This document shows positions 6,714 through 27,010 of a DNA stretch of 64,000 nucleotides, in pieces. Below the pieces are notes generated by a model. That model saw only the letters and a list, made by a program, of their open reading frames with translations. It ran no database searches and had not been told where the DNA came from. A program made the translations under genes and the position numbers. Every line of letters begins with the position of its first letter. Position 1 is the stretch's first letter. Source of the DNA: an uncultured Chloroflexia bacterium (GTDB taxonomy: Bacteria; Chloroflexota; Limnocylindria; Limnocylindrales; CSP1-4); the NCBI GenBank assembly GCA_963790915.1, contig CAWBQS010000003.1, positions 552,471 through 616,470 of the forward strand, in the 5' to 3' direction.

Positions 6714-6768
6714 TGGCCACGTTACGGGCCGGGCGGGGCGATCGGCGGCACTTGCGTGGCCGAGTCAG

Positions 6769-7752
6769 TCACCCTGGAATAGCGGCGGCGACCGCCGGGT
6801 CAGCAGCGTGGCAGGCGACCTGGTGTCCGCTTGCGCGTTCCTCCAGCGCTGGCCGTTCCGTGGCACAGATCGCCATGGCCAGCGGACAGCGTGGGCGATA
6901 GGCGCAGCCGACCAACAGGTCCGGGTCGGTGCCCGGGTCGGGCGTGCTGTCGGCGCCAGCTGCCGTCGTTGCGACTCCCAGCCCGGCCGTCGCCAGGAGC
7001 GCCAGCGTGTAGGGGTGGCTGGCGGCACCGAACAGCTGGTCGCGCGTGCCGGTCTCCACGATGCGCCCCGCGTACATGACCGAGACGCGGTCGCTGATGT
7101 GACGGACTACCGCCAGGTCGTGGGCGATGAAGAGGTAGGCGATGCCGAGGTCCTGCTTGAGGTCCAGGAGCAGGTTGAGGATCTGGCCCTGCACGGAGAC
7201 GTCGAGGGCAGAGACCGGCTCGTCGCAGACGATGAGCGATGGCTCCAGGGCAAGGGCCCGGGCGATGCCGATGCGCTGCAGTTGCCCGCCGGAGAATGAG
7301 GCCGGCCGGCGGTCGGCCTGGGAGGGGTCCATGCCCACCCGAGCCAGCAGCTCGTCCGCGCGCTGGCGACGCTCGGCCCTGTCGTAGAGGCCGTGGCTGG
7401 TCCACGGCTCGGTCACGATGTCGCGGACCCGATAGCGCGGGTCCAGCGACGAGAACGGATCCTGGTAGATGAGCTGGATGTGGCGCCTCATGCGGCGCAG
7501 CTCGGCACCCTGCAGGGCGAAGAGATCCTCGCCCCTGAAGGTTGCCGTCCCAGCGTCTGGCTCGATGAGCCGCAGCAGGATCCGCCCTGTCGTGGACTTG
7601 CCCGACCCCGACTCGCCCACCAGGCCGTGCGTCTCGCCATCCGCGACGGCGATGTCCACGTCGGCGACCGCGTGCACGAGTCGGCGATTGCCGCCACTTC
7701 CGCTCGCGAACGACTTGCGAAGGCCGCGGGCGTCGAGCAGAGGTCCGGACAT
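6769..7752 (-). CDS. DppF/OppF-like ABC ATPase, convergent to the dpp-type operon
   Basis: 327 aa, intact. Walker A GESGSGKST, signature FSGGQLQR, Walker B LIVCDEPVSALD, H-loop IAHDL, C-terminal CAYRPRCP motif. Confidence 0.9.
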   Translation of the reverse strand: MSGPLLDARGLRKSFASGSGGNRRLVHAVADVDIAVADGETHGLVGESGSGKSTTGRILLRLIEPDAGTATFRGEDLFALQGAELRRMRRHIQLIYQDPFSSLDPRYRVRDIVTEPWTSHGLYDRAERRQRADELLARVGMDPSQADRRPASFSGGQLQRIGIARALALEPSLIVCDEPVSALDVSVQGQILNLLLDLKQDLGIAYLFIAHDLAVVRHISDRVSVMYAGRIVETGTRDQLFGAASHPYTLALLATAGLGVATTAAGADSTPDPGTDPDLLVGCAYRPRCPLAMAICATERPALEERASGHQVACHAADPAVAAAIPG

Positions 7753-7900
7753 GACCGCAGAGTAGCGGTGCCGCTCGACCGGGGTTCAGAGGCGCAGGGC
7801 CCCGCAGGGCTGATCCACGACGGGCGGAGGGTCCCAGCGCGGGACGCGCTTGGCATCGCATCACACCCGCTGGTGCGCCACGCACGCGGCCGGGCCCTTC

Positions 7901-8375: not shown

Positions 8376-9218
8376 ATGCGGCTCTCGAATGGTGGACGAG
8401 CCCGGTCCAGGCCAGGCCGCAGGAGTGACGAGCGAGCCCTGGGTAGGGTCCTCCTCCGGGTCGTCGTCGTCGGCGTGCTGACCGTGGCCCTGTCGGGCTG
8501 CGACGTCATCAGCGGCCTGTTGCCTGAGGAGCTCCAGGGCAGCGCGCTGGCTCCCGCGGAAGCGCTCTGCATCCAATACGAGGTGCTCGCGTCGGATGAG
8601 CAGGAGGTCACGCCCGAGCTCCTCGAGCAGACGCGGACGGTCATCGAGGAGCGCGTCAACGCGCTGGGTGTGGCCGAGCCGACGGTCCAGGCACGGGGGA
8701 CGAACGACATCTCGGTGCAGCTGCCCGGCCTTGCGGCCGCGGACATCGATGAGGTCCGCAGCCTCATCGGCACCACTGGCGTGCTCACGTTCATGCCCGT
8801 GCCGACGGGCCTCCAGGGCAGCGTCACCGAGGGTCCCCTGCCCGAGGGCATGGCGGACATCGAGCCGCTCTTCACGGGTGTCGAGATCGCCAGCGCCACG
8901 ATCGCCGAGGACTCCATGACGCGCGAGGTCGTCGTGGACCTCCAACTCAAGGACACGGGCGCCCGCCTCTTCGACGAGTACGCCAGAGAGCACTTCGGCG
9001 AGCAGTTCGCCATCGTCCTCGATGACCAGGTCATGTCGGCCCCGGTCATCCAGGCTATGCGCTTCGGCGGCCGAGCCCAGATCTCCGGCGGCCAGGGCGG
9101 CTTCCTCGCGAACGAGGCCAACAGACTGGTGACCGTCCTCAAGTTCGGCCCGCTGCCCCTGCCGGTCCGTGAGGGCAGCGCAGGAGCTTGCGGAGGAGTT
9201 CAAGACTCCCTCCCCTGA
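8376..9218 (+). CDS. Lipoprotein consisting only of a SecD-type periplasmic (P1 head/base) domain
   Basis: Lipobox VALSGC after a basic/hydrophobic leader. The segment TPELLEQTRTVIEERVNALGVAEPTVQARGTNDISVQLPG..DIDEVRSLIGTTGVLTF and the later FAIVLDDQVMSAPVIQ..GGRAQISGG...ANEANRLVTVLKFGPLPLPV match the SecD N-terminal periplasmic domain. No TM bundle follows before the stop at 9218. Confidence 0.7.
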   Translation: MRLSNGGRARSRPGRRSDERALGRVLLRVVVVGVLTVALSGCDVISGLLPEELQGSALAPAEALCIQYEVLASDEQEVTPELLEQTRTVIEERVNALGVAEPTVQARGTNDISVQLPGLAAADIDEVRSLIGTTGVLTFMPVPTGLQGSVTEGPLPEGMADIEPLFTGVEIASATIAEDSMTREVVVDLQLKDTGARLFDEYAREHFGEQFAIVLDDQVMSAPVIQAMRFGGRAQISGGQGGFLANEANRLVTVLKFGPLPLPVREGSAGACGGVQDSLP

Positions 9219-12475: not shown

Positions 12476-12620
12476 CGACGATGGCCGGCGATGACCGATG
12501 CAGCAAGAGCCATCCGACCCGGCGCAGCACGTTCCCGACCGGCACTTGCTCTGCCGCCTGCGCGGGGCCTACCATCGACCTCGTCCACGACCCGACCAAC
12601 ACTTCGCGGAGGTACGGGCG

Positions 12621-12995
12621 ATGCCGACCGATTTCACGGTCTCCCTCTACCACCGGCCCGGTACCCTTGCGGCCGCCAGCGCCGCGCTCGGCCACGCAGG
12701 CATCGATATCGTTGGTGCCTGCGCCTTCGTCTGCGACGGGCAGGGCGTCTACCACCTCCTGGTCTCCGATGCCGAGCGCAGCCGTCGGGCGCTCATCGAT
12801 GCCGACTTCGATGTCCTCGCCGAGCGGCAGGTGATGCTCACTCCCGTGGAGCACCGGCCTGGCGCCGCGGCTGAGGTCCTTGCCCGGATCGCGGGCCTGG
12901 GCATCAGCATCGACCTGCTCTACCTCACGATGGATGGTCAGCTCGTCATCGGCGCTGACGACCTCGAAGGTATCCGGCAGGCGCTCGCGACCTGA
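12621..12995 (+). CDS. ACT-domain (small-molecule-binding) protein
   Basis: ATG 12621 lies 8 nt after GGAGG. Two short beta-alpha-beta-beta-alpha-beta-like halves (FTVSLYHRPGTLAAASAALGHAGIDI; MLTPVEHRPGAAAEVLARIAGLGISI). Confidence 0.65.
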   Translation: MPTDFTVSLYHRPGTLAAASAALGHAGIDIVGACAFVCDGQGVYHLLVSDAERSRRALIDADFDVLAERQVMLTPVEHRPGAAAEVLARIAGLGISIDLLYLTMDGQLVIGADDLEGIRQALAT

Positions 12996-13032: not shown

Positions 13033-15132
13033 TCAGACCTCGGCGTACAGATGCCGGGAGATGACGTGATCCTGGTACTCGGGTGAGAGCTCGCAGAAGT
13101 AGCCGCTCCAGCCCCAGACGCGCACGATGAGATCGCGGTGCTCGTCGGGGTGCGCCTTGGCGTCGAGCAGGCGGCTGGCGCTGAGGGCGTTGAGCTGCAG
13201 CTGCTGGCCCCCGAGGTGCGCGAAGGTGCGCACCAGGCCTGCGACCTTGCTGATGGAGTCGGGGCTGCGGAAGACGGAGTCGGACAGCTCCAGGGTGATG
13301 GGGCCGCCGTTGCAGATGCGCCCGTAGTCGATGCCCGCGTAGGACTGCAGCACGCTGATCGGACCGCGGAGCGGCGTGCCCGGCGTGGGCGCCAGGTTGG
13401 CCCCGAACGGGTCGCCCCGGTGCCGTCCGTCCGCGGTGGCGCCGACCACCGGTTCCGGCATGGACGCGTCGCTGCGGCCGCGCGCCAGCCAGAGGTAGTA
13501 CATCGCCGTGCCGGTGCCCGGTCGGACCAGCAGACCCGCCGTCTCCTGCTCCGCCTCGCAGGCATCGGCGAGCCAGTCGTAGAGCTGGCGCAGCAGACCG
13601 TCGACCTCCGGCTCGTGGAGGCCGACGCGGGGGCTCTCCTCCGCCAGCCGGCGCCGCAATGCCTCGTGCCCGGAGAAGTCGGCCGCCAGGGCCGCCAGGA
13701 GCTCATCCGTCGCCACGTCGCGGAGCTCGAAGACGTGCCGCCGCACCGCCGCCAGGGAGTCCGCGGCGCTCGCCGCAGCTGCCCCGTGGATGCCCAGGTT
13801 GCGGTACCTGGCTCCCTGACCATGATCGCGGCCATGCTCCAGCGCGTCCGTCATGAGCACGGAATACCAGGGCGCCGGCGCCCACAGGAGCCGCTCGTAG
13901 GGCTCCACGCGCGCGCGCACCTGGCCGGCGATCTCTGCCCGGGTGCACTCAAGGATGGTCTCGAAGGAGGCGCCCGACGCGAGGCCCTCGCGGATGGCGG
14001 CATCCGCCGCGGCCGGGAAGGAGACCGCGCCGACGTTGCCGACGTCCATGCCGCGCCCCGGGATGATGAACTCCCAGCAGGCCGCCACGGTGTAGTCGCG
14101 GGCGTCCTCCAGGTCGTAGCCGTGGGAGGCCAGGGCCGGGATGACGACGTCGTCGTTGGCGTACTGCGGGAAGCCCAGGCCCTTGCGGGTCAGCTCCGTG
14201 CCCAGCTCCAGGAGGGCCTGGTCGGTTCGCGCGTCGATGCGCAGGTTGACCTTGGGGTCGATGAGCCCGACGTCGCGGGCGACGCGCAGGGCCATCCAGG
14301 TCAGCGGATTGACGGCCGACTCCCCCGCCGGCGTCACGCCACCAAGGGTCATGGACTGGCCGTTGTCGCCCTGCTGGATGCCCGGATACAGGTCGGAATC
14401 GCGGTTGAGGGCGATGAAGGCCTCCGCCAGCAGCTCCTCCGCGCCGGCCTCGTCGAGGCGTCCGGCCGCGAGGTCCGCAGACAGGTAAGGCCAGAGGTAC
14501 TGGTCCAGCCGGCCCAGGCCGACGTGGTGATGGCCAGACAGCCAGACCATGGCCTGCATGAAGCGCAGCGACTGGAGAGCCTCGTGGAGGGTCCGCGCGG
14601 GATGGGCGGGCACGTGCGCCAGCACATCCGCCACCTCGTCCATGCCCAGCCGGCGCGCCTCGGCCTCGTATCGGGCGACCAGGGCCAGGACGGCGTCGAT
14701 GGTCTCCATGGCGGCGGCCGTGAACTCGGCGGCATCGTCGTCGCCGCCGGTCAGTGCCCGCGCATGGGACGCCTCCGCCACGGCGCGGCGGGCCAGCAGG
14801 CCCTGCCCGATGGCCATGCCCCAGTCAGCGCAGACGTTGTTGATGATGCCGCCCTCGTGGAGCGTGCGGCCGGCGGTCAGCGCCGCGAAGTCCTCCGCGG
14901 TGTAGACGCCTGGCACGGCCGGCAGCGTCCGCGTGTAGACGATGCGCTCGTCGGGCTCGATGACGACGCGCTCCGCCTCGCACATGCGCACCGTCAGGCG
15001 AGCGCGGCGCATCGTCCACGAAAGGCCCTCGCGGTCGCACTCGCAGATGAGGTCCGGTGAGGCGTCCTGCCGGTAGGCGGCGAAATGCCCGTCCCGTGTC
15101 CGGGCTCGCAGCCCGATCAAGCGTTCGTTCAT
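13033..15132 (-). CDS. Glycyl radical enzyme, PFL2/eliminase-like, unusually compact (699 aa)
   Basis: C-terminal glycyl-radical fingerprint LIVRVWGWSGYFCELSPEYQDHVISR (Gly674 codon at 13111-13113). Cys-loop DYTVAACWEFIIPGRG (Cys352 at 14077-14079, Glu354 at 14071-14073). QSMTLGG motif. ATGA overlap with the activase stop. Confidence 0.9.
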   Translation of the reverse strand: MNERLIGLRARTRDGHFAAYRQDASPDLICECDREGLSWTMRRARLTVRMCEAERVVIEPDERIVYTRTLPAVPGVYTAEDFAALTAGRTLHEGGIINNVCADWGMAIGQGLLARRAVAEASHARALTGGDDDAAEFTAAAMETIDAVLALVARYEAEARRLGMDEVADVLAHVPAHPARTLHEALQSLRFMQAMVWLSGHHHVGLGRLDQYLWPYLSADLAAGRLDEAGAEELLAEAFIALNRDSDLYPGIQQGDNGQSMTLGGVTPAGESAVNPLTWMALRVARDVGLIDPKVNLRIDARTDQALLELGTELTRKGLGFPQYANDDVVIPALASHGYDLEDARDYTVAACWEFIIPGRGMDVGNVGAVSFPAAADAAIREGLASGASFETILECTRAEIAGQVRARVEPYERLLWAPAPWYSVLMTDALEHGRDHGQGARYRNLGIHGAAAASAADSLAAVRRHVFELRDVATDELLAALAADFSGHEALRRRLAEESPRVGLHEPEVDGLLRQLYDWLADACEAEQETAGLLVRPGTGTAMYYLWLARGRSDASMPEPVVGATADGRHRGDPFGANLAPTPGTPLRGPISVLQSYAGIDYGRICNGGPITLELSDSVFRSPDSISKVAGLVRTFAHLGGQQLQLNALSASRLLDAKAHPDEHRDLIVRVWGWSGYFCELSPEYQDHVISRHLYAEV

Positions 15133-15884
15133 GCCACGCGCACCTCGATGCCCCGCCGGGTGAATGGTTCGATATCGATGTTGGGAGGCCGCTCCTCGTC
15201 GTACCCGGGGGCGAAATCCAGCCCGCAGGCGGCGTACTTGCCACCCGCCGCCCGGTTGTAGGGCAGCAGCTGGACCTCGACGAGGGTCGGCGCCATCTCC
15301 AGCGCGCCGGCGATGGCCTCGAGATTGTCCCCCATGTCGGTCACACCCGGGACCAGCGGGATCCGCGCCACGAAGGGGCGCTCCAGCTCCTCGAGAAGGG
15401 CCAGGTTGCGCAGGATGGGGGCGTTGTCCTGGCCGGTCCAGCGCAGGTGCGCCCCGGGGTCGATGAGCTTGATGTCGAAGTAGATGAGGTCGCAGCGCGA
15501 GGCCACGGCGGCGAAGGGTCCCCTCTCCGCGTAGCCCGACGTATCGAGCACGACATGGAGGCCCTCGAGGCGGTCGATGACGTCGGCCACGAAGGCCGCC
15601 TGCATGAGCGGCTCGCCTCCGGAGAACGTCACGCCGCCGTCATTGAGGCGCAGCACATCGGCCTGGCCCATCAGGAGGGCCGCCAGGTCGCCGGCCTCCC
15701 AGCGGCGACCCACCAGTCGCTCGCCGGCCGCTGAGCGCAGCACCTGCGGCTCCGGGTCCAGGCCCTCGGGGTTGTGGCACCAGGCGCAGCGCAGCGGGCA
15801 GCCCTTCAGGAAGACGGTCGTGCGGATGCCCGGCCCGTCGTGGACCGTGAACTCGCGGATGTCGAAGACGATGCCGGAGCTCAC
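15129..15884 (-). CDS. Glycyl-radical enzyme activating enzyme (radical SAM), short PflA-like form
   Basis: GTG 15884 (GTGA overlap with the ATPase stop). N-terminus VFDIREFTVHDGPGIRTTVFLKGCPLRCAWCHNPE carries the CxxxCxxC motif. The GGEPL SAM motif is present. Only 5 Cys in total, so no ferredoxin-like auxiliary-cluster insert. Confidence 0.9.
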   Translation of the reverse strand: MSSGIVFDIREFTVHDGPGIRTTVFLKGCPLRCAWCHNPEGLDPEPQVLRSAAGERLVGRRWEAGDLAALLMGQADVLRLNDGGVTFSGGEPLMQAAFVADVIDRLEGLHVVLDTSGYAERGPFAAVASRCDLIYFDIKLIDPGAHLRWTGQDNAPILRNLALLEELERPFVARIPLVPGVTDMGDNLEAIAGALEMAPTLVEVQLLPYNRAAGGKYAACGLDFAPGYDEERPPNIDIEPFTRRGIEVRVA

Positions 15885-17476
15885 GCTCCCGTTCCCGCCG
15901 CCGTGCCCGGCGGAGCGGTCGCCGGCGCGTGCGAGACGGCGGCTGGAGCGGCGGCGGCCTTGTCGGGCAGCATCAGGGAGAGGATGGACTGTTCCGTGGC
16001 CTCGCCACGGGCGACCTCCGCGGAGATGGCACCCAAACGCATCACGTAGATGCGGTCGCTCATGCTGATGATCTCGGGCAGGTCGGACGAGATCATGAGC
16101 ACCGCGCCACCCCGATCGGCGATGGCCTCCATGAGCTCGTAGAGCGCATAGCGGGCGGAGACGTCCACACCGCGCGTGGGTTCGTCGAGGACATAGACGA
16201 GACGGTCGCGGGCCAGCCACTTGCCGATGGCGACACGCTGCTGGTTGCCGCCCGACAGGGTGAAGGCGGGCTGGTCCACGCTCCGCGCGACGATGCTCAG
16301 CTCCTGCACCAGTGACGTGGCAAGGACCCGCTCGCGGCGGGGCACGACGAGGGGGCCTGGCCCCAGGCGCGGCCACTCGGTGACGGCCAGGTTGCGCAGG
16401 ATCGGCAGGGGCAGGATGACGCCCTGGTCCTTGCGGTTCTCGGGCACGAAGGCCATGCCCGCGTCCAGCCGGCGGCGCATCGGCCAGCGGGTGACGTCCG
16501 TGCCCTCCAGGAGGACGGCGCCGGAGACCACGGGGTCGGCGCCCACGATGGCCCGCGCCAGCTCCGTGCGACCGGCTCCCACGAGGCCGGCGAGACCCAC
16601 GATCTCCCCGCGGCGGAGCGTGATGGAGACCGGGCCGGAGCCGCCGGCAGGCTGGAGGTCGCGCGTCTCGAGCACGACCTCGCCCGGCGTCGCTGCGTGG
16701 CGCTGGTAGACGGCGTCCAGGTGACGCCCGACCATGCGCTCGACGATCTCGTCGCGGCTGCTGTCCGCGGTGCGCAGCGTGCCCATGGAGCGACCGTCCT
16801 TGAGGACGGAGACGCGGTCGGAGATGACGAAGACCTCGTCGAGGCGGTGCGTCACGAGGACGATGCCCAAGCCCTCGGCGCGCAGGCGGCGCAGGAGCTC
16901 GAAGAGACGCTCCGTCTCGAAACGGCTCAGGCTGGCCGTGGGCTCATCGAGGATGAGGATGCGCGAACGCTCGTTGAGGGCCCGGGCGATCTCTACGAGC
17001 TGCTGCTGGGAGGTTGACAGTCGGTCGACCGGGCTGTCCAGGTCGACGCTGACCCCGAGCGTGGCGATGGCCTCGGCGGCCTGGCGGCGCATCTCGCCCT
17101 TGTCCAGGCGGCGGCCGCGCTTGATCTCCCGGCCCAGGAACATGTTCTCGACGACGGAGAGGTGCGGCGCCAGGCTGAACTCCTGCCAGATGACCGCGAT
17201 GCCCTGGGCGCGCACCTGCGAGATGGTCGTCTCGCCACGCAGGCTACCGTCGACGAGCAGGCTGCCGCCCTCGTAGGGCAGCGCCCCGGCGATGACCTTG
17301 ATGAGGGTCGTCTTGCCGGCGCCGTTCTCGCCCACCAGGGCGTGCACCTCGCCCGCGAGGAGCTCCAGCGAGGCGTCGGCGAGGAGCAGGACGTCCGTGC
17401 CGCGGATGGGCCGGCCGTCGTCGTCGTACGCGTACTTCTGGATGTGCTGGGCGTCAAGGAGGACGGTGCTGGTCAT
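15881..17476 (-). CDS. Sugar ABC transporter ATP-binding protein, duplicated NBD (RbsA/AraG/MglA-like)
   Basis: ATG 17476 (ATGA overlap with the permease stop). First NBD has GENGAGKTT, LSTSQQQLVEIARAL, ILILDEPTASL. Second NBD has GLVGAGRTE, LSGGNQQRVAIGKWL, VYVLDEPTRGVD. It is the C-terminal part of ORF 15881..18514. Confidence 0.9.
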   Translation of the reverse strand: MTSTVLLDAQHIQKYAYDDDGRPIRGTDVLLLADASLELLAGEVHALVGENGAGKTTLIKVIAGALPYEGGSLLVDGSLRGETTISQVRAQGIAVIWQEFSLAPHLSVVENMFLGREIKRGRRLDKGEMRRQAAEAIATLGVSVDLDSPVDRLSTSQQQLVEIARALNERSRILILDEPTASLSRFETERLFELLRRLRAEGLGIVLVTHRLDEVFVISDRVSVLKDGRSMGTLRTADSSRDEIVERMVGRHLDAVYQRHAATPGEVVLETRDLQPAGGSGPVSITLRRGEIVGLAGLVGAGRTELARAIVGADPVVSGAVLLEGTDVTRWPMRRRLDAGMAFVPENRKDQGVILPLPILRNLAVTEWPRLGPGPLVVPRRERVLATSLVQELSIVARSVDQPAFTLSGGNQQRVAIGKWLARDRLVYVLDEPTRGVDVSARYALYELMEAIADRGGAVLMISSDLPEIISMSDRIYVMRLGAISAEVARGEATEQSILSLMLPDKAAAAPAAVSHAPATAPPGTAAGTGA

Positions 17477-18514
17477 GTCCGCTCGCCGAGGTAGCGGCTG
17501 CGCGCCGCGTCGACCACGAGGGCGATGACGATGATGGCGCCCATGACCGCCTGGTACAGCTGCGACGGGATGTTGAGCAGGATGATGCAGTTGTTGATGG
17601 TCCTGATGATGATGGCGCCGATGACCACGCCCACGACCGTGCCGCGTCCACCGAAGAGGCTGGTGCCGCCGACCACGGCGGCCGTGATCGTCTCGAACGT
17701 GGCGTTGAAGCCACCCAGCGTCGGCACGCCGATCTGGACGCGGGAGGTGAGCATGACCGCCGCCAGGGCCGCCAGGCCGCTGCAGATGGCGAAGCTCGAG
17801 ATGACGATGCGTGGCACGCGCACCCCGGACAGGCCGGCCGTCACCCGGTTGTAGCCCACGGCCACGACGGAACGACCGAAGGTCGTGTGGTTGAGCACGA
17901 CCCATGCGATGGCCGCCACGACCACTGCCAGGATGACCAGGTAGGGGATGCCCAGGATCAGGCCGGTCTGGAGGCCCACGAACACGTCGTCGGCCGGCAT
18001 CGAGAGCATGGATCCGGCGGAGATCGATCTGGGCCAGGGCGAAGGCGATGTAGAAGCCGCCCAGCGTCGTGATGAAGGCCGGGATGCGCACCCACTGCAC
18101 GAGCACGCCATTGAAGAGCCCGAAGAGGACGCCCGCGCCAAGGGCGGCTGCGAGCGCCAGGGGCAGGCTGCCAGTCTGGATCATGACCGTGACGAGGACC
18201 ACGGAGCTGAGGCCGTAGAGCGCGCCGACGGAGAGGTCGATGCCACCGATGAGCAGGACGAAGAGGATGCCGATGGCGGCCACGCCCAGGTCCGAGGCCT
18301 GACGCAGGACGTTGCGGATGTTGTCCACGCTGCCGAACTTGGGCACGAAGATCCAGGCCAGGACCCACATGATCAGGAGCAGCGCGAGGAGGCCCAGCGT
18401 CGGGTTGCGGCTGATGCGATCCAAGGCGCCAGCGGCGCGGCCGCGCCGCGTCGTGGTGGCTGGCTGGAGCGGGGCCATCGATCCGCCGACAGCCGGCGCG
18501 CTGGGAGCGCTCAC
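17473..18514 (-). pseudogene. Sugar ABC permease (RbsC/AraH-like) with one frame break near 18021-18030 (pseudogene or assembly indel)
   Basis: The N-terminal 160 aa (frame of 18514) reads ...IGGIDLSVGALYGLSSVV...TTLGGFYIAFALAQI. The C-terminal 170 aa (frame of ORF 17473..18141) reads ISAGSMLSMPADDVF...GRSVVAVGYNRVTAGLSGVRV...AVVGGTSLFGGRGTVVGVVIGAIII. The junction lies in AGATCGATCT. Confidence 0.8.
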
Positions 18515-19503
18515 GCGGTCCTCCCGTGCCGGGAGCGCTGCAGGGCGCTGCTGGCCATATCACGAAGCACCGGACCCTGGACGGTCACGAGGACCGCGGT
18601 GATGATGAGCAGGCCGGTCACGAGGTCCTGCATGAACGGCTGCACCCCCTGCAGGTTCATGATGTTGCGGATCGCGAAGAGGAAGATGGCGCCCGCCCCG
18701 GCCGCCCAGAGGTGGCCACGCCCACCGAAGAGGTCCACCCCGCCGATGACGCAGGCGGCTACCGCCAGCAGCGTGTACGGCTCGCCCTGCAACGGGTTGG
18801 CGGTGCCCAGGCGGGCGGCCAGCATCGTGCCGGCCACGGCCGCGAGCAGCCCGGACACGAGGTAGGCGCTCGCCAGGACCCGGGCTACGGGAACCCCGGA
18901 GAGGCGAGCCACGGCGAAGTTGTCACCCGTCGCGCGCAGGTGCACGCCCCAGGTGGTCGCGCGCGTCACGACCTCGAGGATGATGAGCATGGTGACTGCC
19001 AGCAGGACGGTGATGGGGATGCCCATGAGGGCGTCGTTGCCGATCGACACGAAGTCGGGCGGGAAGACGGGGTGCCCGATGACGTTCGCGATGTAGAGGG
19101 CGAGGCCGGCGGCGATGCCCAGCGTGCCGAACGTGGCGATGAAGGGCGGGAGCTTGAGGCGGGAGACGATGACGGCATTGACCGCGCCCAGCAGGAGCCC
19201 GACCGCGAGGCCCACCACGACGGCCAGCGGCCAGGGCATCCCCGAGCTGACGAGCGCCACTTCCACGACGCCGACGAGGGACATGACCCCGCCGACGGAG
19301 AGGTCGATGCCGCCCGTGAGCAGGACCAGCGTCATCCCGAACGCCGCCACGGACAGGATGGCCGCCTCGAGCAGGACCTTGGAGAGGTTCGTCGTCGTCG
19401 CGAAGAACGGCACGAACTGCCCGACCAGCAGCACCACCACGGCGATCGCCACGGCCGCGGCGATGGCGCGCGCGAGGAGCCGGTCAGTGGGGCGGCGGGT
19501 CAT
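18511..19503 (-). CDS. Sugar ABC permease (RbsC/AraH-like), intact
   Basis: 330 aa, ATG 19503 preceded by GGAGGGAGG. Motifs TGGIDLSVGGVMSL, ATGDNFAVARLSGVPV, GGVDLFGGRG. Confidence 0.9.
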   Translation of the reverse strand: MTRRPTDRLLARAIAAAVAIAVVVLLVGQFVPFFATTTNLSKVLLEAAILSVAAFGMTLVLLTGGIDLSVGGVMSLVGVVEVALVSSGMPWPLAVVVGLAVGLLLGAVNAVIVSRLKLPPFIATFGTLGIAAGLALYIANVIGHPVFPPDFVSIGNDALMGIPITVLLAVTMLIILEVVTRATTWGVHLRATGDNFAVARLSGVPVARVLASAYLVSGLLAAVAGTMLAARLGTANPLQGEPYTLLAVAACVIGGVDLFGGRGHLWAAGAGAIFLFAIRNIMNLQGVQPFMQDLVTGLLIITAVLVTVQGPVLRDMASSALQRSRHGRTA

Positions 19504-19571
19504 CTTCCTCCCTCCAGCGAAGGCCGGCGCGACCCTCGAGGGCAGCGCCGGCCTCGTGTCTCAGGCTGGGC

Positions 19572-20525
19572 CTAGAAGGCCTTCGCCATGGCCTCCTCGG
19601 CGTTCTCGGTCGTGACCGTCACGGTGCCCGAGTCGATGTACTTCTCGAGCGAGCCCGGCTCCAGCTCACCGGCCGCCATCTTCATGGCGAAGTCGGCAGC
19701 CATGGACCCCATGGCCATGGGGTCCTGGGTGTTGTCGGCCATGATCCAGCCGTCCATGACTCCCTGGACGCCCACCTTGGAGCCGTCGATGGCGAGGATC
19801 TTGACGTCGGTCTTGCTCGCGCCGGCGAGCGCCTGGCGGATGCCGTCCACCATGACGTCGCTGGCCGAGAGGACGGCCTGCAGATCAGGGTTGGCCTGGA
19901 GGATGGTCTCCATGGCCGCGAGGGCAGTGGCGTTGTCCCACATCCCGGTGGCCGAGGCCACAGGGACGATGTTCCCGGAGGCGAGGCCTTCGTTGAAGCC
20001 CTTGAGCCGGTCGTCACCGGCGACCGAGCCGGGGGCGCCCTCGATGATGGCGACCTTGAGGGCCGGGTCGTTCATCGTCGTGACCAGGTAGGTGGCCAGG
20101 TCGCGGCCGGCCTTGACGTTGTCGGTCGCGATGAGCGTCTCATAGAGCGCTTCGTTGCCAGCCGCGATGGGCTGGTCGACGAGGAACACCGGGATACCGG
20201 CCTCCTGGGCCTTCTGCAGGGCCGGCAGGACGGCAGAGCCGTCCATCGGGCTCACGATGATGCCGTCGACCTGCTGGGTGACGAGGTCTTCGAGCTGGCT
20301 GGACTGCTGGGCGACAGCGGTCTGGCCGCCGGCCACGAGCAGCTGCACGCTGCCGCCGAGGCCTTCGACCGTGTCGGTCGCCGACTGCACCCAGGCCGCC
20401 TGGAATGGATCGTTGGTGATGGTCTTCACGGACAGCCCGATGACCGGGGCGTCCTGCGCCATGGCCGCCGCAGGCAGCATGGCCACGAGGAGCGCTGCCG
20501 CTCCAAGGATCCCGAAACGTCGCAT
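19572..20525 (-). CDS. Periplasmic sugar-binding protein (PBP1, RbsB/AraF-like)
   Basis: ATG 20525 with GAGAGG 8 nt upstream. Signal peptide MRRFGILGAAALLVAMLPAAAMAQ. The mature part starts IGLSVKTITNDPFQ, followed by VDGIIVSP and IPVFLVD, as in ribose/arabinose/galactose binding proteins. Confidence 0.9.
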   Translation of the reverse strand: MRRFGILGAAALLVAMLPAAAMAQDAPVIGLSVKTITNDPFQAAWVQSATDTVEGLGGSVQLLVAGGQTAVAQQSSQLEDLVTQQVDGIIVSPMDGSAVLPALQKAQEAGIPVFLVDQPIAAGNEALYETLIATDNVKAGRDLATYLVTTMNDPALKVAIIEGAPGSVAGDDRLKGFNEGLASGNIVPVASATGMWDNATALAAMETILQANPDLQAVLSASDVMVDGIRQALAGASKTDVKILAIDGSKVGVQGVMDGWIMADNTQDPMAMGSMAADFAMKMAAGELEPGSLEKYIDSGTVTVTTENAEEAMAKAF

Positions 20526-20776: not shown

Positions 20777-20887
20777 CACTCCAGCGGACTATAAAGCACT
20801 CCAGGCCGCGCCGTCGAGATGCGGCGCATTCGACCCAGCGAACCACCCGGTCCGCCGTAAGTCAGCCAGGATGTACTGGATGACATC

Positions 20888-21886
20888 GTGTATGGTTGGA
20901 CGGTGCGAGGCAAGACACTGCACCTCCTGGCGGCCAGCGACGAGGCCGGACACCTCGACGTCTTCAAGGCTCTCTCCAGCCCCACGCGCCTGGGCATCCT
21001 GGAGCTGCTGGGGTCGGGATCGCTGCCCATCGCCCGCATCGCCAGTCGCATGGACATCCCGCCCTCCACGGCGGCCATGCACGTGGCCGTGCTGGAGCGG
21101 TCTGGCCTCATCCGCACGGACATGACGCCCGCCAATCGGGGCCTGCAGAAGGTCTGCACGCGCAAGTACGACGAGATCTCCATCCTCATCCCGCGCGAGG
21201 ATTCTGCGGCTCATGCCCGCAGCGAGATCAGCATGCCGGTGGGCGCCTACTCGGAGTTCGAGGTGGAGCCCACCTGCGGACTGGCCGGCGTTCACGGGCT
21301 CATCGGCTACATCGACGACCCCTCCAGCTTCTATGAGCCTGAGCACCTCACGGCGCAGCTCATCTGGTTCCGCCGCGGCTACGTGGAGTACCGCTTCCCC
21401 AACCGCGTGCCGTCCACCTCGCGCATCGCCTCGGTGCAGTTCTCGGCGGAGCTCTGCAGTGAAGCGCCGCTCCACAACGACGACTACCCGAGTGACATCA
21501 CCGTCTCCATCAACGGCGTGGAGCTGGGCACGTGGACCTCGCCGGGCGACTTCGGCGGCGAGCGGGGACGGCTGACGCCCGACTGGTGGGAGGTCGGGGA
21601 CTCGCAGTACGGGCTGCTCAAGCGCTGGCGCGTGTCGGCGGAAGGTACGTCGCTGGACGGCGTGCACTTCTCTGACGTGACGCTGGACGACCTGCGCCTC
21701 GCGCCGCGGGAGCCCATCCGCGTGATCGTCAGCGTGGAGCGTGGCGCCGTCCATGTCGGCGGCATCAACCTCTTCGGCCGGCAGTTCGGGAACTACCCGC
21801 AGGACCTCGTGCTGGCCATCGACTACGTGCCCCTCGACGGCGTCGCCGTCGAGACGGCCGCCCCGGCCCTGCTGACGACCGCCTGA
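20888..21886 (+). CDS. ArsR-type winged-helix regulator with a roughly 230-aa C-terminal domain of unknown function
   Basis: HTH segment FKALSSPTRLGILELLGSGSLPIARIASRMDIPPSTAAMHVAVLERSGLI. The remaining 230 aa have no motif I recognise. GTG start. Confidence 0.75.
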   Translation: MYGWTVRGKTLHLLAASDEAGHLDVFKALSSPTRLGILELLGSGSLPIARIASRMDIPPSTAAMHVAVLERSGLIRTDMTPANRGLQKVCTRKYDEISILIPREDSAAHARSEISMPVGAYSEFEVEPTCGLAGVHGLIGYIDDPSSFYEPEHLTAQLIWFRRGYVEYRFPNRVPSTSRIASVQFSAELCSEAPLHNDDYPSDITVSINGVELGTWTSPGDFGGERGRLTPDWWEVGDSQYGLLKRWRVSAEGTSLDGVHFSDVTLDDLRLAPREPIRVIVSVERGAVHVGGINLFGRQFGNYPQDLVLAIDYVPLDGVAVETAAPALLTTA

Positions 21887-21950: not shown

Positions 21951-23450
21951 TCAGACCGCGCCGGCCAGGTGCCAGTAGACCTGGCTCCACTGCACCTCCT
22001 GCCCGAAGCGCCAGGCATCCGTACCGGCGCCGATGGCCAGCAGCTCCACGCCGACCATCGTGGCGAAGTCGCGCATGACCTCCAGGTCGATGGCCAGGCT
22101 GTAGGCCGTGTGGTGCGGTCCGCCGGCCGTGAGCCAGGCTTCCGCGGCCGTGGCCAGGTCCGGGCGGGGCTCCCAGACCGCGCGAGCCACGGGCAGCCGC
22201 GGCAGATCCTCCGGCGGCTCCACGCCGTCCGCCTCGTTGACCAGGAGACGAAGGCGGTTGCCCATGTCGACGAGGCCGACGATGAGCGCCGGGCCGGGCC
22301 GCGCGCTGAAGACGAGACGCACGGGGTCCTCGCGCCCGCCCACGAAGAGCGGATGGATCTCGGCACGCGGCCGCGCGGCCGCGATGCTGGGGCAGATCTC
22401 CAGCATGTGGGCACCCAGCGTCTGGCCGGGCGAGCCGAAGTCGTACGTGTAGTCCTCCATGAACGACGAGCCGCCGGGCAGACCATCGCCCATGGCCTTG
22501 ACGAGTCGCACCAGGGCGGACGACTTCCAGTCTCCCTCGCCGCCGAAGCCGTAGCCATCCGCCATCAGCCGCTGGGCGCCGATGCCCGGAAGCTGGCGCA
22601 GGCCACCGAGGTCCTCGAAGGTGTCGGTGAAGGCCATGAAGCCGCCGTCGCCCAGGAAGGCGCGCAGGCCCAGCTCGATGCGGGCCGCTTCGCGCAGGGA
22701 CGCGCGACGGTCGCCGCCGGGCCGCAGCTCCGCCGCGACCTCGTACAGCTCGTCGTACTCGGCACAGAGTCGCTCGACGTCTGCGTCCGCGACCTCGCCG
22801 ACGACCCGCACGAGATCGTTGACCGCATACGTGTTGCAGGCGATGCCCAGCCTGGCCTGCACCTCCGTCTTGTCGCCCTCGGTATCCGCGACGTGGCGCA
22901 TGTTGTCGCCGAAGCGGCAGACCTTGAGGTGCCGGCCCTCGTGCACGCCGACCGCGGCCCGCGCCCAGGCACCGATACGGCCCTGCACGGCCGGGTCCTG
23001 CCAGTGGCCCACGACCGTCTTGCGGGGATGGCGCAGCCGCGTGGCGATGTAGGCGAACTCGCGGTCGCCGTGCGCCGACTGGTTGAGGTTCATGAAGTCC
23101 ATGTCGATGCTCGACCAGGGCAGGTCGCGCCCGAATTGCGTGTGCAGGTGGAGCAGCGGCTTCTGGAGGGCCTGCAGACCGGCGATCCACATCTTGGCCG
23201 GGCTGAAGGTGTGCATCCAGGCGATGACCCCGATGCAGCGGTCGTCGGCGCTGGCATCCAGGCAGGCCTGGCGGATGGCATCCGGGTGGAGCAGCGTGGG
23301 CACCTTCACGATCTCCACGGGGATGGCCGGCGCCGCCCCAAGGCCCTCGACGATGCGGGTCGACTGCTCGGACACCAGCCGCAGCGTCTCATCGCTGTAG
23401 ACGTCCAGGCTGCCCGTCAGGAACATGATCCGAAGTCCGTCGAAGGCCAT
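21951..23450 (-). CDS. araA: L-arabinose isomerase
   Basis: 499 aa, RBS GAGGAGG. The full length reads like AraA: MFLTGSLDVY, IAWMHTFSPAKMW, LHLHTQF, FMNLNQSAHGDREF, FMEDYTYDF, GAHMLE, GGPHHTA. Confidence 0.92.
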   Translation of the reverse strand: MAFDGLRIMFLTGSLDVYSDETLRLVSEQSTRIVEGLGAAPAIPVEIVKVPTLLHPDAIRQACLDASADDRCIGVIAWMHTFSPAKMWIAGLQALQKPLLHLHTQFGRDLPWSSIDMDFMNLNQSAHGDREFAYIATRLRHPRKTVVGHWQDPAVQGRIGAWARAAVGVHEGRHLKVCRFGDNMRHVADTEGDKTEVQARLGIACNTYAVNDLVRVVGEVADADVERLCAEYDELYEVAAELRPGGDRRASLREAARIELGLRAFLGDGGFMAFTDTFEDLGGLRQLPGIGAQRLMADGYGFGGEGDWKSSALVRLVKAMGDGLPGGSSFMEDYTYDFGSPGQTLGAHMLEICPSIAAARPRAEIHPLFVGGREDPVRLVFSARPGPALIVGLVDMGNRLRLLVNEADGVEPPEDLPRLPVARAVWEPRPDLATAAEAWLTAGGPHHTAYSLAIDLEVMRDFATMVGVELLAIGAGTDAWRFGQEVQWSQVYWHLAGAV

Positions 23451-23752: not shown

Positions 23753-25022
23753 TCAGCCAGCGATGATGCCCAGCTCGTTGCCCACGCGGGCCATCGTCTC
23801 CAGCGCGCGGTCGAGGTGCTCATCCGTGTGAGCCGCGGTCACGATCGTGCGCAACCGCGCGCCGTCCAGGGGCACGGTGGGGTAGACGACAGAGGTGGCG
23901 AAGATGCCCGCTTCGAAGAGCCGGTCGCTGAAGCGGATGGCGGCCTCCGACTCGCCGACCATGATCGGCGTGATGGGCGTCTCCGAGGCGCCCGTGTCGA
24001 AGCCGAGGCGTGCCAGCTCCGCCTTGAAGCGCCGGGTATTGGCCCAGAGCCGCTCGAAGAGGCCGTCCTCTTCGCGCATGACCGCCAGGGCCTCGAGGCA
24101 GGCCGCCGCCACAGCCGGCGGGTGCGAGGTGGAGAAGAGGAAGGGTCGCGCGCGCTGCGTCAGCAGGTCCCGGAGCACCGTCGAGCCGGCCACGTAGCCT
24201 CCCAGCACACCGACGGCCTTGGAGAGGGTGCCCACCTGGATGGCGACGCGGCCGTGCAGCCCGAAGTGATCCACGCTGCCGCGGCCGTGGTCGCCCAGCA
24301 CACCGGAGGCGTGGGCGTCGTCGACGTACACGGCGGCACCGACCTCCTCGGCGGCGCCCGACGATGCCCGGCAGCGGGCAGATGTCCCCGTCCATGGAGA
24401 AGACCCCGTCGGTCACGACGAGGATGAGCCGGTACGGTTCGCCAGTGCCCGGTCGCCCCTCGGCGACCGCCCGGGCCAGGATGGCGCGCAACGCCGCCAC
24501 GTCCTTGTGCGGGTAGACCTGCCGTGCCGCCCTGGAGAGACGCAGGCCGTCGATGATCGAGGCGTGGTTGAGCGCGTCGCTGACGATGAGGTCCGCTTCG
24601 CCGGTGACGACCGGCAGGACGCCCGTGTTGGCCGTGAAGCCAGACTGGAAGACGAGCGTGGCCTCGGTGGCCTTGAAGTCGGCCAGCTCTCGCTCCAGTC
24701 GTTCGTGGATGGCGAGCGTCCCGGCGATGGTGCGCACGGCCCCGGAGCCGACGCCCAGCTCACGCACGGCCCGCTCCGCGGCAGCCCGCAGGCGCGGGTG
24801 GTGCGTGAGGCCCAGGTAGTCGTTGGAGGAGAAGCTGATGACCTCACGGCCATCGACGCGGCAGACCGGCCCCTGCGCCGTGCCCAGCTCGCGCAACGGG
24901 CGGTAGAGGTGGCGAGCGTGCAGGTCGGCCAGCTCGTCGGCCAGGAAAGCCAGCGGGTCGTGGGTCGCGCGCCTGCCCTGCTCGCCGTGCGGCGGGGGGC
25001 CGGACATCGGTTCGCGGGCCAT
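23753..25022 (-). pseudogene. kbl: 2-amino-3-ketobutyrate CoA ligase (glycine C-acetyltransferase) with one frame break near 24357-24360 (pseudogene or assembly indel)
   Basis: The N-terminal frame reads [36 protein letters not shown]. The C-terminal frame (ORF 23753..24331) reads [21 protein letters not shown]...GTLSKAVG (PLP lysine). The junction is in a CCC/GGG run. The start overlaps the tdh stop. Confidence 0.85.
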
Positions 25023-26050
25023 CACAGGCTCCAGTCGAGGAGCACCTTGCCGGACTCACCGGAGCGCGCCGCCGCGAAGGCCGCAGCGTGGTCGGTGAAG
25101 GCGAAGCGATGGGTGATGGCCGGCCGGATGTCCAGGCCCGACTGGAGCATGACGCTCATCTTGTACCAGGTCTCGTACATCTCGCGGCCGTAGATGCCGC
25201 TGATCGTGAGCATCTTGAAGATGACGGCGTCGAGGTCCAGGCTGAGCGGCTCGCTCGGGATGCCCAGCTGCGCCAGGCGACCGCCGTGCGCCATGCTGGC
25301 GATGGCCGTGCGGATGGCGGCCGGGTTGCCGGACATCTCGAGCGCCACGTCGAAGCCCTCGACCATGCCCAGGCGACGCTGCACCTCAGCCAGGTCATCG
25401 ACGCCCGGATCCACCACGTGCGTGGCGCCCATGCGCTCCGCCAGTGCGCGGCGATAGGCGTTGGGCTCGCTGACCACGATGTGGCGGGCGCCGGCGTGTC
25501 GCACCACGGCCACGGCCATGAGGCCGATCGGCCCGGCCCCCGTGACCAGCACGTCCTCACCCAGCACATCGAAGCGCAGCGCCGTGTGGACCGCGTTGCC
25601 GAAGGGATCGAAGATGGCGGCCACGTCCTCGTCGATGCCGGGCCAGTGATGCCAGACGTTGGTCATGGGCAGGGACACATACTCAGCGAACGCCCCGTCA
25701 CGACCCACCCCGAGGCCGATGCTGTGGGCGCAGAGGTGTCGGCGCCCGGCCAGGCAGTGGCGGCAGCGACCGCAGACGACGTGGCCCTCGCCGCTGACGA
25801 TGTCGCCCGGCCCGAAGTCGCTGACGTTGTCGCCCACGGCCACGATCTCGCCCACGAACTCGTGGCCGACCACGAGGGGCGGCTTGATGGCGCCGGCTGC
25901 CCAGGCGTCCCATGACTCGATGTGCAGGTCGGTGCCGCAGATCCCGGCCTTGCGCACCCGGATGAGGACGTCGTTCATGCCCATCTCCGGCTCGGGAACC
26001 TCCAGCAGTCCCAGTCCCGGACCGGACGTGACCTTCACCAGGGCGCGCAT
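25022..26050 (-). CDS. tdh: L-threonine 3-dehydrogenase (zinc MDR family)
   Basis: ATG 26050. Motifs GICGTDLHI, GHEFVGEIV, CGRCRHCLAG, VTGAGPIGL, and the typical C-terminus ITHRF..FEL-like ending GKVLLDW. Operon with kbl. Confidence 0.9.
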   Translation of the reverse strand: MRALVKVTSGPGLGLLEVPEPEMGMNDVLIRVRKAGICGTDLHIESWDAWAAGAIKPPLVVGHEFVGEIVAVGDNVSDFGPGDIVSGEGHVVCGRCRHCLAGRRHLCAHSIGLGVGRDGAFAEYVSLPMTNVWHHWPGIDEDVAAIFDPFGNAVHTALRFDVLGEDVLVTGAGPIGLMAVAVVRHAGARHIVVSEPNAYRRALAERMGATHVVDPGVDDLAEVQRRLGMVEGFDVALEMSGNPAAIRTAIASMAHGGRLAQLGIPSEPLSLDLDAVIFKMLTISGIYGREMYETWYKMSVMLQSGLDIRPAITHRFAFTDHAAAFAAARSGESGKVLLDWSL

Positions 26051-26310
26051 GGACACCTCGCGTGCGAACGGATGGCCGCCATCTTCGACCCACGGCGCTT
26101 CGCCGTCCACTCGAGGGCCGATCGGCATCCTCTCCGCGCTGCCGGGGCAGGCGCAACGGCCGCCGGGTGCGGGCGATTCGGCCCTATCGAGACGCTGCCG
26201 CGGAGGTGACGCTGTCAGGCACAACCGAAGAAGGTCGAACTCCGGAGGCATTCCCCCCTGGCGTCCCGGCGATTCGAGTCGTGGGCACATCCTGGTACAC
26301 AGCCATCCGA

Positions 26311-26337
26311 TCACCGTCCGCGGTCACCGTCCATCAC
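26311..26337 (+). promoter_or_regulatory. Direct repeats TCACCGTCC-N4-TCACCGTCC-A-TCAC upstream of hdrC
   Basis: Read directly from the sequence, 35-60 nt upstream of the hdrC ATG (26372). Confidence 0.25.
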
Positions 26338-26371
26338 GGGCCGCGGGCGTTTGAGCAAATGAGGCGTACAG

Positions 26372-27010
26372 ATGCCAAAGGCACAGATCCCGTCTCCCCC
26401 CGCACCGGTCGGGGGCAGACGCGCCCCGACCTTCCAGGAGGAGATCCTGGCGTCGATCCCGGCCGACTCCCGCCTGGAGACGTGCATCCAGTGCGGCACG
26501 TGCGGGGGATCCTGCCCCTCCGAGCGGGACATGGACCACACGCCTCGCCAGATCTTCGCGCTCATCCGGGCCGGCGCCCGGGATCGCGTCATGGACAGCA
26601 ACACACCCTGGATGTGCGTGTCGTGCTACCTGTGCGCCGTGCGCTGCCCGCAGAAGATCCACATCCCTGACGTCATGTACGCCCTGAAGGCCAAGGCCAC
26701 CCGGGAGAACCGGGTGCCCAGCCACGTGGCCCCCGACTTCTCGCGCACGTTCGTGGATTACATCCACAAGTACGGGCGCAGCTTCGAGGTCGGGCTCGTC
26801 GCCAAGCACTACCTGCGCCACTACATGACGCGCCTGCCCGGCATGACCACCTCCGGCATCGGCATGGTCACCAAGGGCCGCATGGGCTTCCGGCCACATC
26901 GCATCGTCGGGCTGGAGGGCCTCAACGCCATCCTGGCCCGTGCCACCGAGCTCGAGGAGGCCCGGCAGCGCAGCCTCTATGACGCGCCGGTCCAGGACGG
27001 GAGCCACTGA
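26372..27010 (+). CDS. hdrC: Heterodisulfide reductase subunit C
   Basis: Two ferredoxin motifs, CIQCGTCGGSCP and CVSCYLCAVRCP. 212 aa. TGATG junction with hdrB. Confidence 0.9.
   Translation: MPKAQIPSPPAPVGGRRAPTFQEEILASIPADSRLETCIQCGTCGGSCPSERDMDHTPRQIFALIRAGARDRVMDSNTPWMCVSCYLCAVRCPQKIHIPDVMYALKAKATRENRVPSHVAPDFSRTFVDYIHKYGRSFEVGLVAKHYLRHYMTRLPGMTTSGIGMVTKGRMGFRPHRIVGLEGLNAILARATELEEARQRSLYDAPVQDGSH

Follow-up and report, generated by a model that had tools for sequence, protein, structure and literature searches.

The window analysed here is a 64,000-nucleotide stretch of contig CAWBQS010000003.1 from an uncultured Chloroflexia bacterium, with a G+C content of ~70%. Between positions 13033 and 20525, its minus strand carries six genes that encode a glycyl radical enzyme (GRE), the putative GRE-activating enzyme (AE) of the radical S-adenosylmethionine (SAM) type, and the components of a CUT2-type ATP-binding cassette (ABC) sugar importer. 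Each gene has a Pfam or NCBIfam match, and codon-position G+C supports coding in all six, with a third-position G+C of 0.90–0.95. A preliminary description of this DNA had listed the same six serial genes, all of which are present; it had not seen that the second permease gene is frameshifted. The divergent long ArsR-type regulator gene and the araA gene are likewise as it described them. The features are:

13033..15132, minus strand: GRE, 699 amino acids; Pfam PFL-like and Gly_radical domains
15129..15884, minus strand: GRE-activating radical SAM enzyme (AE), 251 amino acids; TIGR02494, 200 bits, cut-off 174
15881..17476, minus strand: CUT2-type ABC ATPase with two fused nucleotide-binding domains (NBDs), nearest AraG; two ABC_tran domains
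17473..18514, minus strand: CUT2 permease 2, frameshifted in the assembly; BPD_transp_2 in two frames
18511..19503, minus strand: CUT2 permease 1, AraH/RbsC-like; BPD_transp_2, 2e-38
19572..20525, minus strand: periplasmic substrate-binding protein (SBP), type I periplasmic binding protein (PBP), RbsB-like, with signal peptide; Peripla_BP_4, 1e-51
20788..20817, minus strand: candidate promoter TCGACG-18-TATAGT; sigma-70-like match
20888..21886, plus strand: long ArsR-type regulator, 332 amino acids, divergent from the operon; HTH_20, 4e-11
21951..23450, minus strand: L-arabinose isomerase AraA; AraA equivalog model, 733 bits, cut-off 622

Four of the gene junctions are 4-nt stop/start overlaps, as had been reported, and can be read directly in the sequence: gcGTGAgc between permease 1 and permease 2 (18511–18514), acATGAcc between permease 2 and the ATPase (17473–17476), gcGTGAgc between the ATPase and AE (15881–15884), and gcATGAac between AE and the GRE (15129–15132). 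The SBP and permease 1 genes are spaced by 68 nt that hold a strong ribosome-binding site, GGAGGGAGG. Stop/start overlaps are commonplace in operons of high-GC genomes, and the overlap between the AE stop and the GRE start is repeated in ~20 related loci. The four overlaps therefore demonstrate an operon and nothing exceeding chance. The araA gene lies on the same strand upstream of the operon, and the candidate promoter is located in the divergent intergenic stretch before the SBP gene, as a weak match that is the sole sigma-70-like one between 12400 and 22000. A gene for a small ACT-domain protein (12498–12995, plus strand) runs toward the GRE gene's 3' end, with no terminator-like hairpin detected in between; terminator and operator scans gave nothing useful.

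The GRE matches the PFL-like domain (PF02901, 3.5e-83) and the Gly_radical domain (PF01228, 1.8e-16) of Pfam. The radical glycine, Gly674, lies in the motif R671-V-W-G674-W-S, which does not vary among 40 relatives and reaches at least 97% conservation in 136 clade members. The catalytic Cys352 is part of the sequence A-A-C-W-E, in which C352, W353, and E354 are each at least 97% conserved among the same 136 members; a second, adjacent cysteine is absent from this loop, as in GREs of the CXE type. The Cys-x-Glu loop noted in the preliminary description is thus an invariant C352-W-E354. An AlphaFold2 model of the enzyme (pLDDT 79, pTM 0.82) adopts a barrel fold that superposes in Foldseek on more than 40 GRE structures with TM-scores of 0.77–0.82, the top match and best solved relative being Escherichia coli PflD (8yjo; TM-score 0.82, 26% identity). 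With both domains, the radical-glycine motif, a catalytic cysteine in a barrel, and an adjoining CX3CX2C activase, the protein is, judged by sequence and predicted fold, a genuine GRE of the PFL-like division.

The enzyme reaches the cut-off of no curated NCBIfam model of a characterised GRE. It scores 304 bits against the PFL2/glycerol dehydratase subfamily model (cut-off 678), 258 bits against the PflD equivalog model NF007437 (cut-off 1109), 234 bits against HpsG (cut-off 1000), 233 bits against CutC (cut-off 1050), 229 bits against HypD (cut-off 1100), and 46 bits against the pyruvate formate-lyase (PFL) model TIGR01255 (cut-off 994); over the eliminase and decarboxylase models (CutC, HypD, HpsG, HpfG, IAD, and HPAD) together with PFL2, the scores span 133–304 bits against cut-offs of 678–1150. 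A PFL-type identity was rejected on motifs, the Cys-Cys pair being missing, and on model scores, and an X-succinate-synthase-type identity was likewise rejected on motifs and model scores. The failure of every curated model and the low identity of the nearest structure, PflD, bear out the proposal that this GRE falls outside the characterised clades. A June 2026 review covers six C–O, one C–N, and three C–S eliminases, three isomerases, four decarboxylases, formate lyases, and X-succinate synthases (PMC13450708). None of the characterised GREs in it matches the window clade, and whole clades are still unassigned (PMC13450708). Our searches of the literature likewise gave no description of the clade.

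In an exhaustive search of 50%-identity representatives, hits above ~400 bits are mostly full-length proteins of ~640–710 residues, and hits below ~330 bits are mainly ordinary GREs of 690–810 residues. By sequence, the window GRE belongs to a distinct clade of 680–700-residue proteins outside all characterised GREs. The clade amounts to thousands of 90%-identity clusters, and a pattern scan over one genome per species finds a relative encoded in at least 578 genomes. Querying public contigs for the exact sequence of the window GRE gave no match. The best 80 of these are nearly all metagenome-assembled genomes (MAGs) and represent Chloroflexota, Planctomycetota, Verrucomicrobiota, Lentisphaerota/Kiritimatiellota, Acidobacteriota, Bacteroidota, Bacillota, Synergistota, spirochaetes, and Melainabacteria. 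Clade members come from soil, sediment, peat, digesters, and guts, and nearly all belong to uncultured glycan degraders.

Although identity to the window GRE drops to ~36–40% in sampled members, 114 residues are at least 97% conserved over both subclades, which argues for a single shared chemistry. An acidic/polar loop, D245-x-D-L-Y-x-G-x-Q-x-G-D-N-G-Q259, is invariant in the clade and replaces a hydrophobic stretch of PflD and CutC; it could be a new substrate- or metal-binding element. Also invariant, and absent from PflD and YbiW, are W353 in the C-W-E loop, E615, and the pair W673/W675 around the radical glycine. Near the N-terminus, the nearer subclade has invariant C32, C51, H92, and C101, which may together make up a metal site.

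The AE contains a CX3CX2C motif at C29, C33, and C36, has five cysteines in total, and lacks the CX2CX2CX3C motif; its match to TIGR02494 omits model positions ~40–97. Nearly all GRE activases except those of PFL and ribonucleotide reductase (RNR) carry a ferredoxin-like domain with eight extra cysteines (PMC13450708). This insert, with its two CX2CX2CX3C motifs, is missing from the window AE and from 48 of the 58 clade AEs, and the ten that keep it all come from the more distant subclade. Reconstitution of such a small AE, free of auxiliary clusters, may be easier.

A type I PBP, BPD_transp_2 permeases, and a fused two-NBD ATPase are combined in one operon, which is the composition of a CUT2 importer. 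Assignment to a named system (AraFGH, RbsABC, XylFGH, AlsABC, YtfQRT, and others) failed with every equivalog model below its cut-off: the ATPase scores 472 bits against AraG (cut-off 689), followed by XylG and GguA, permease 1 scores 174 bits against AraH (cut-off 378), and the SBP scores 118 bits against RbsB (cut-off 337). The best PDB matches of the SBP are ribose-binding proteins, and the ligand residues N13, F15, D89, R141, D215, and Q235 of the E. coli ribose-binding protein are kept in it, while R90, F16, F164, and N190 are replaced. Across the clade, the binding proteins beside the GREs fall into at least four pocket types.

The permease 2 span is 1042 nt long (3n+1), hence not a single open frame. 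The N-terminal half follows the frame of the start at 18514 and the C-terminal half the frame that ends at 17473, and the two halves match BPD_transp_2 positions 2–101 and 134–269 in these separate frames. A DNA alignment with the two closest relatives of the locus (L001 and L056) places one extra base at ~18026, where the window reads CAGAT[C]GATCTCC and the relatives read CAGATGATCTCC; the extra base creates GATCGATC. Owing to this insertion, the importer as assembled is not intact in all its components. A second split gene lies nearby: a kbl-like class I/II aminotransferase (23753–25025, minus strand) whose N-terminal part (23820–25025) and C-terminal part (23753–24412) are in different frames. 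Since this second split gene is close by and the closest relatives are MAGs, an assembly indel in permease 2 is plausible, a real mutation being the alternative.

We examined the gene neighbourhoods of the 52 relatives whose GRE gene is flanked by 4 kb or more of sequence on each side, counting transporters within 10 kb. All counts come from a six-frame rescan of open reading frames (ORFs) with hidden Markov models, ORF calling being prone to strand errors in high-GC loci, and neighbouring genes were clustered and the clusters named by Pfam/NCBIfam. AE adjoins the GRE in 49 of the 52 loci, and a sugar transporter is present in 38 (25 CUT2, 9 MFS, 6 CUT1), often as the direct neighbour of the AE-GRE pair. 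L-arabinose genes, namely araA/B/D or glycoside hydrolases (GHs) of families GH51/GH127, occur in 25 of the 52, and other recurrent neighbours are GH2, GH43, GH36, mutarotase, and galK. The AraA, AraD, and GalK proteins from related loci pass their curated cut-offs.

These components are arranged differently from lineage to lineage. The two closest relatives have the order araA-SBP-permease-permease-ATPase-AE-GRE, i.e. the window operon led by araA. Bacteroidota-like loci, from independent gene calls with precomputed Pfam matches, read (sulfatase/GH43 or GH36)-GH51-aldose 1-epimerase-MFS sugar porter-AE-GRE; the MFS protein scores above the cut-off of the sugar-porter model and the epimerase above that of the galactose-1-epimerase subfamily model, and the GH51 protein comes close to the ArfA cut-off. 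Bacillota/Tenericutes loci, also from independent gene calls and Pfam, read GH2-AE-GRE-GH43-(GH43)-unknown-SBP_bac_1-two permeases, forming a CUT1 ABC system, with a long ArsR-type gene divergent. In 12–14 Anaerolineae loci (L002–L011, L017, L019, L048, and L052), up to three URO-D/MtaA-like methyltransferases and a B12-binding corrinoid protein are encoded directly upstream of AE-GRE in the same orientation, ~1–5 kb from the GRE gene, which suggests that methyl transfer is tied to the GRE in this class. The same loci have a transglutaminase-like gene on the opposite strand and a CUT2 ABC system with a single-NBD ATPase further upstream, and araA-(M24)-(Zn-ADH)-araB-araD or galK, Zn-ADH being a zinc-dependent alcohol dehydrogenase, follows the GRE gene in Anaerolineae. 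Dehydrogenases of the Zn-ADH, GFO/IDH/MocA, and short-chain (SDR) families recur near the GRE in Verrucomicrobiota and Acidobacteriota.

Among 113 otherwise unclassified neighbours there is no recurrent dedicated downstream enzyme, only regulators having recurred, which suggests a single GRE step that feeds common pathways. No Fsa-type aldolase was found among the neighbours at related loci, nor were microcompartment shell, aldehyde dehydrogenase, or 1,3-propanediol dehydrogenase genes. This GRE shows a conserved association with sugar uptake, which recurs across many phyla, and with enzymes that liberate or metabolise L-arabinose and D-galactose; the CUT2 wiring is one variant only. The notion of a GRE hard-wired to a CUT2 importer thus describes 25 of the 52 loci, the others having MFS or CUT1 transporters or, in 14 cases, none detected within 10 kb. 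The linkage itself is no chance juxtaposition, given that sugar uptake and L-arabinose genes recur around the GRE in relatives from many phyla.

The ArsR-type protein combines an N-terminal HTH_20 domain with a conserved uncharacterised C-terminal domain of ~240 residues. It is 37–38% identical over ~300 residues, i.e. its whole length, to the divergent regulators of the Bacillota/Tenericutes GRE operons, and members of this long ArsR family are encoded in L080 (6342–7271), L088 (4981–5910), L089 (5217–6134), L090 (5027–5944), and L092 (5404–6327). The closest relatives of the window locus carry a LacI-type gene in its place. By sequence comparison, the pairing of a long ArsR regulator with the GRE operon crosses phyla; the protein probably regulates the operon, and the family as a whole is probably a ligand sensor. 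It could serve as a ready-made sensor for the GRE-linked ligand.

The analysis establishes the genes, their motifs, the fold, the operon layout, and the recurrent genomic setting; which substrate is used, which bond is broken, and what the regulator and AraA do are inferred in the following scheme. The GRE very probably acts on a sugar, or a derivative of one, that is imported. The most likely function, which we hold with about even confidence, is that the GRE cleaves a C–O bond by radical chemistry in an imported neutral monosaccharide of the arabinose/galactose type or in a close derivative. The operon would be a substrate-inducible catabolic operon, in which the CUT2 importer would take up a neutral carbohydrate of monosaccharide size, most likely an L-arabinose/D-galactose-configured one or a closely related derivative, that comes from arabinan- or arabinogalactan-type glycans and passes directly to the cytoplasmic GRE. 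The co-translated AE, with S-adenosylmethionine and its single [4Fe-4S] cluster, would put the radical on Gly674, which stores it; the Cys352 thiyl would then take hydrogen from a carbinol carbon while Glu354 deprotonates the hydroxyl of that carbinol, the resulting ketyl radical would expel a vicinal oxygen substituent (hydroxyl, ring oxygen, or ether), and Cys352 would give the hydrogen back. The net reaction would be a redox-neutral C–O cleavage in a non-phosphorylated sugar, by dehydration or by opening of a ring or ether, and its product would feed ordinary sugar catabolism, with AraA adjoining. These radical steps follow the established GRE mechanism (PMC13450708), and the CXE motif's glutamate deprotonates the substrate hydroxyl in GRE 1,2-eliminases (PMC13450708). 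The motif is also common to the ring-opening 'isomerases' PflD, YbiW, and HplG and to the decarboxylase HPAD (PMC13450708), so that the Cys-x-Glu loop, from which the preliminary description had read dehydration or elimination, is not specific to dehydration. A neutral, non-phosphorylated substrate is suggested by uptake through ABC or MFS transporters rather than a phosphotransferase system (PTS), by E615 in place of a lysine, and by the polar/acidic loop D245–Q259.

The gene contexts favour free sugars of the L-arabinose/D-galactose type, or derivatives of them, over the pentitol or deoxy-sugar considered earlier, and free arabinose or galactose fits the transporters, mutarotase, and hydrolases at related loci. 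It is a tentative and on balance doubtful proposition that the clade represents the first GRE to act on a free, non-phosphorylated common aldose or ketose, be it L-arabinose/D-galactose or L-ribulose/D-tagatose. Several observations weigh against the proposed C–O cleavage of an imported arabinose/galactose-type sugar. Since complete non-radical pathways exist for free L-arabinose and D-galactose, there is no obvious reason for a radical enzyme acting on either. GRE chemistry normally gives deoxy-carbonyl products, and dedicated downstream enzymes for such products were not found among the 113 unclassified neighbours. The 14 loci in which no transporter was detected within 10 kb do not show the link to uptake, the four or more SBP pocket types mean that the ligand may differ by lineage, and the methyltransferase/corrinoid module of Anaerolineae hints at a methylated substrate and not a plain sugar. 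In the window sequence itself, the permease 2 gene is frameshifted. Finally, when cultured carriers were sought by the names of cluster members and by a further homology search, only MAGs and metagenome contigs were returned.

Some of these points are accommodated if the substrate is a locked sugar (an O-methyl sugar, anhydro-sugar, small glycoside, or alditol) that is co-released with arabinose and galactose, the GRE removing the block or opening the ring and AraA/B/D and GalK processing the ordinary sugars that arrive alongside. We regard this account as somewhat unlikely. To our knowledge there is no widely abundant natural arabino-configured anhydro-sugar, and the Bacteroidota MFS sugar porters and aldose 1-epimerase suit a free reducing sugar. 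As a rule, elimination requires radical chemistry only if a carbonyl to activate it is lacking (PMC13450708), as would hold for a locked sugar, and the closest structure is PflD, which like YbiW opens 1,5-anhydrohexitol phosphates. The methyltransferase and corrinoid genes upstream of AE-GRE in 12–14 Anaerolineae loci would also agree with it as signs of methyl-group handling, yet the module is restricted to one class; the dehydrogenases of Verrucomicrobiota and Acidobacteriota loci are in its favour, and the lack of a recurrent enzyme for a deoxy-keto product among the 113 neighbours is not. It is unlikely that the operon is decaying in this genome, with a real permease 2 insertion, uptake lost, and the GRE genes left as relics. 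Compared with both closest relatives the permease 2 gene is indeed frameshifted, and the break falls midway through a translationally coupled operon, where downstream expression could suffer; however, the remaining genes are intact with strong coding signal, the GRE retains every clade-invariant residue, and the split kbl-like aminotransferase gene nearby, together with closest relatives that are MAGs of the same project kind, fits sporadic assembly indels.

Two other accounts give the GRE a different kind of substrate. In one, which we consider quite improbable, the locus is an ordinary L-arabinose uptake/isomerase operon merely co-regulated with a GRE that acts on a non-sugar intermediate of glycan fermentation, for instance a hydroxy compound or a short diol. 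AraG and AraH are the best-scoring models for the ATPase and permeases and araA is bona fide, the fold resembles propanediol and glycerol dehydratases about as closely as it does PflD, and the CXE motif is also found in the known propanediol and glycerol GRE dehydratases (PMC13450708). Nevertheless, the enzyme falls far short of the PFL2/glycerol dehydratase subfamily model (304 against 678 bits), its neighbours include none of the shell, aldehyde dehydrogenase, or 1,3-propanediol dehydrogenase genes, and the occurrence of three unrelated sugar-transporter types and cytoplasmic GH2/GH43 enzymes in distant phyla is hard to explain without a direct sugar role. The other account, a Kolbe-type decarboxylation of a uronic acid to the matching pentose (D-galacturonate to L-arabinose), is the least probable of all, and very much so. 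A single radical step would then yield a common metabolite for AraA, which would explain both the tight AraA link and the absence of other downstream genes; GH2 neighbours weakly match beta-glucuronidase models, and GRE decarboxylases exist, among them HPAD with a glutamate two residues past the catalytic cysteine (PMC13450708). Known GRE decarboxylases are, however, limited to arylacetates (PMC13450708), the MFS partners are neutral sugar porters, and the clade has gained the acidic E615 and an acidic loop, not carboxylate-binding arginines. Pectinase, pectate lyase, and uronate-pathway genes are not recurrent, UxaC appearing once among the 113 neighbours.

GREs do chemistry that is otherwise inaccessible to anaerobes, and newly assigned clades have revealed routes for the conversion of choline to trimethylamine and for hydroxyproline, sulfonates, and anhydro-sugars. 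Assigning the reaction of the present clade would fill a gap in anaerobic plant-polysaccharide turnover and extend GRE chemistry to non-phosphorylated sugars. If the enzyme does act on a free sugar, it would constitute a new radical branch of pentose/hexose fermentation during anoxic arabinan/arabinogalactan breakdown, used by uncultured Chloroflexota, Planctomycetota, Verrucomicrobiota, Acidobacteriota, Bacteroidota, and Bacillota.

Other genes in the window lie on either side of the GRE operon. A Zn-dependent dehydrogenase gene (25022–26314, minus strand) was considered as a member of the system and rejected: the protein is an L-threonine 3-dehydrogenase that passes its equivalog cut-off, and the gene adjoins the kbl-like gene in an unrelated tdh-kbl threonine operon (23753–26314, minus strand). 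Next to it on the plus strand, positions 26363–33166 encode a 4Fe-4S dicluster protein, a CCG-domain (HdrB-like) protein, a 695-residue FAD/4Fe-4S HdrA-like protein, and the small and large subunits of a NiFe-hydrogenase; this Mvh/Hdr-like module is, by its gene content, consistent with an anaerobic lifestyle. On the other side, an Opp/Dpp-type peptide ABC system (1903–7785; SBP_bac_5, two BPD_transp_1 permeases, and an ATPase with oligo_HPY) and a 280-residue SecD-like ORF (8376–9218), apparently shorter than full SecD, are unrelated to the GRE operon.

Among characterised systems, GRE 1,2-eliminases (glycerol/propanediol dehydratases, HypD, CutC, IslA/IseG, and HpsG/HpfG) have the same barrel as the window GRE (TM-score 0.77–0.82), the CXE motif, and a single catalytic cysteine. 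They differ from it in sequence, with 20–24% identity and equivalog models missed widely (133–304 against 678–1150 bits), and in context, which in the window clade consists of sugar uptake and glycoside hydrolases, without microcompartment or aldehyde-processing genes. PflB shares the superfamily with the window GRE, and the window AE is sized like PFL-AE (~250 residues, radical SAM domain only); by contrast, the window GRE has A-A-C-W-E and no Cys-Cys pair, and only the C-terminal glycine domain aligns with PflB. On the transport side, the CUT2 importers AraFGH, RbsABC, XylFGH, and GguAB-ChvE likewise consist of a type I PBP, BPD_transp_2 permeases, and a fused double-NBD ATPase, and the core sugar-binding residues of ribose-binding protein are kept in the window SBP. 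The window set differs in that it scores below every equivalog cut-off, has two distinct permease genes, is changed in the SBP pocket at R90, F16, F164, and N190, and is coupled to a radical enzyme, not a kinase.

PflD and YbiW are sugar-acting GREs classed as 'isomerases' (PMC13450708), namely the 1,5-anhydromannitol-6-phosphate and 1,5-anhydroglucitol-6-phosphate C–O lyases of 'anhydroglycolysis' (PDB 8yjo, 8id0, and 8id7). They provide the best match to the window GRE in both sequence and structure (E 1e-71, TM-score 0.82) and share with it the CXE cysteine loop, the RVxG[YW]S glycine loop, and a sugar substrate, which for the window GRE is a predicted one. E. coli pflD also lies with its activase gene inside a PTS sugar-importer operon, frwC-frwB-pflD-pflC-frwD, a precedent for a GRE tied to a sugar importer that makes the earlier emphasis on novelty too strong, and E. 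coli ybiW-ybiY adjoins fsaA. The window GRE, however, is only 23–26% identical to these enzymes and ~80 residues shorter at the N-terminus than PflD. It has C-W-E where they have C-V/I-E, has W673 and W675 flanking the glycine, and belongs to a clade with E615 where they have a lysine. PflD and YbiW receive a phosphorylated substrate from the PTS, whereas uptake in the window clade is by ABC or MFS transporters without phosphorylation. The clade also lacks a fructose-6-phosphate aldolase neighbour (FsaA/B), has an arabinose/galactose glycan context, and has an AE without the ferredoxin-like domain. By analogy, then, the window system most resembles PflD/YbiW in its way of working, yet it is outside that family.

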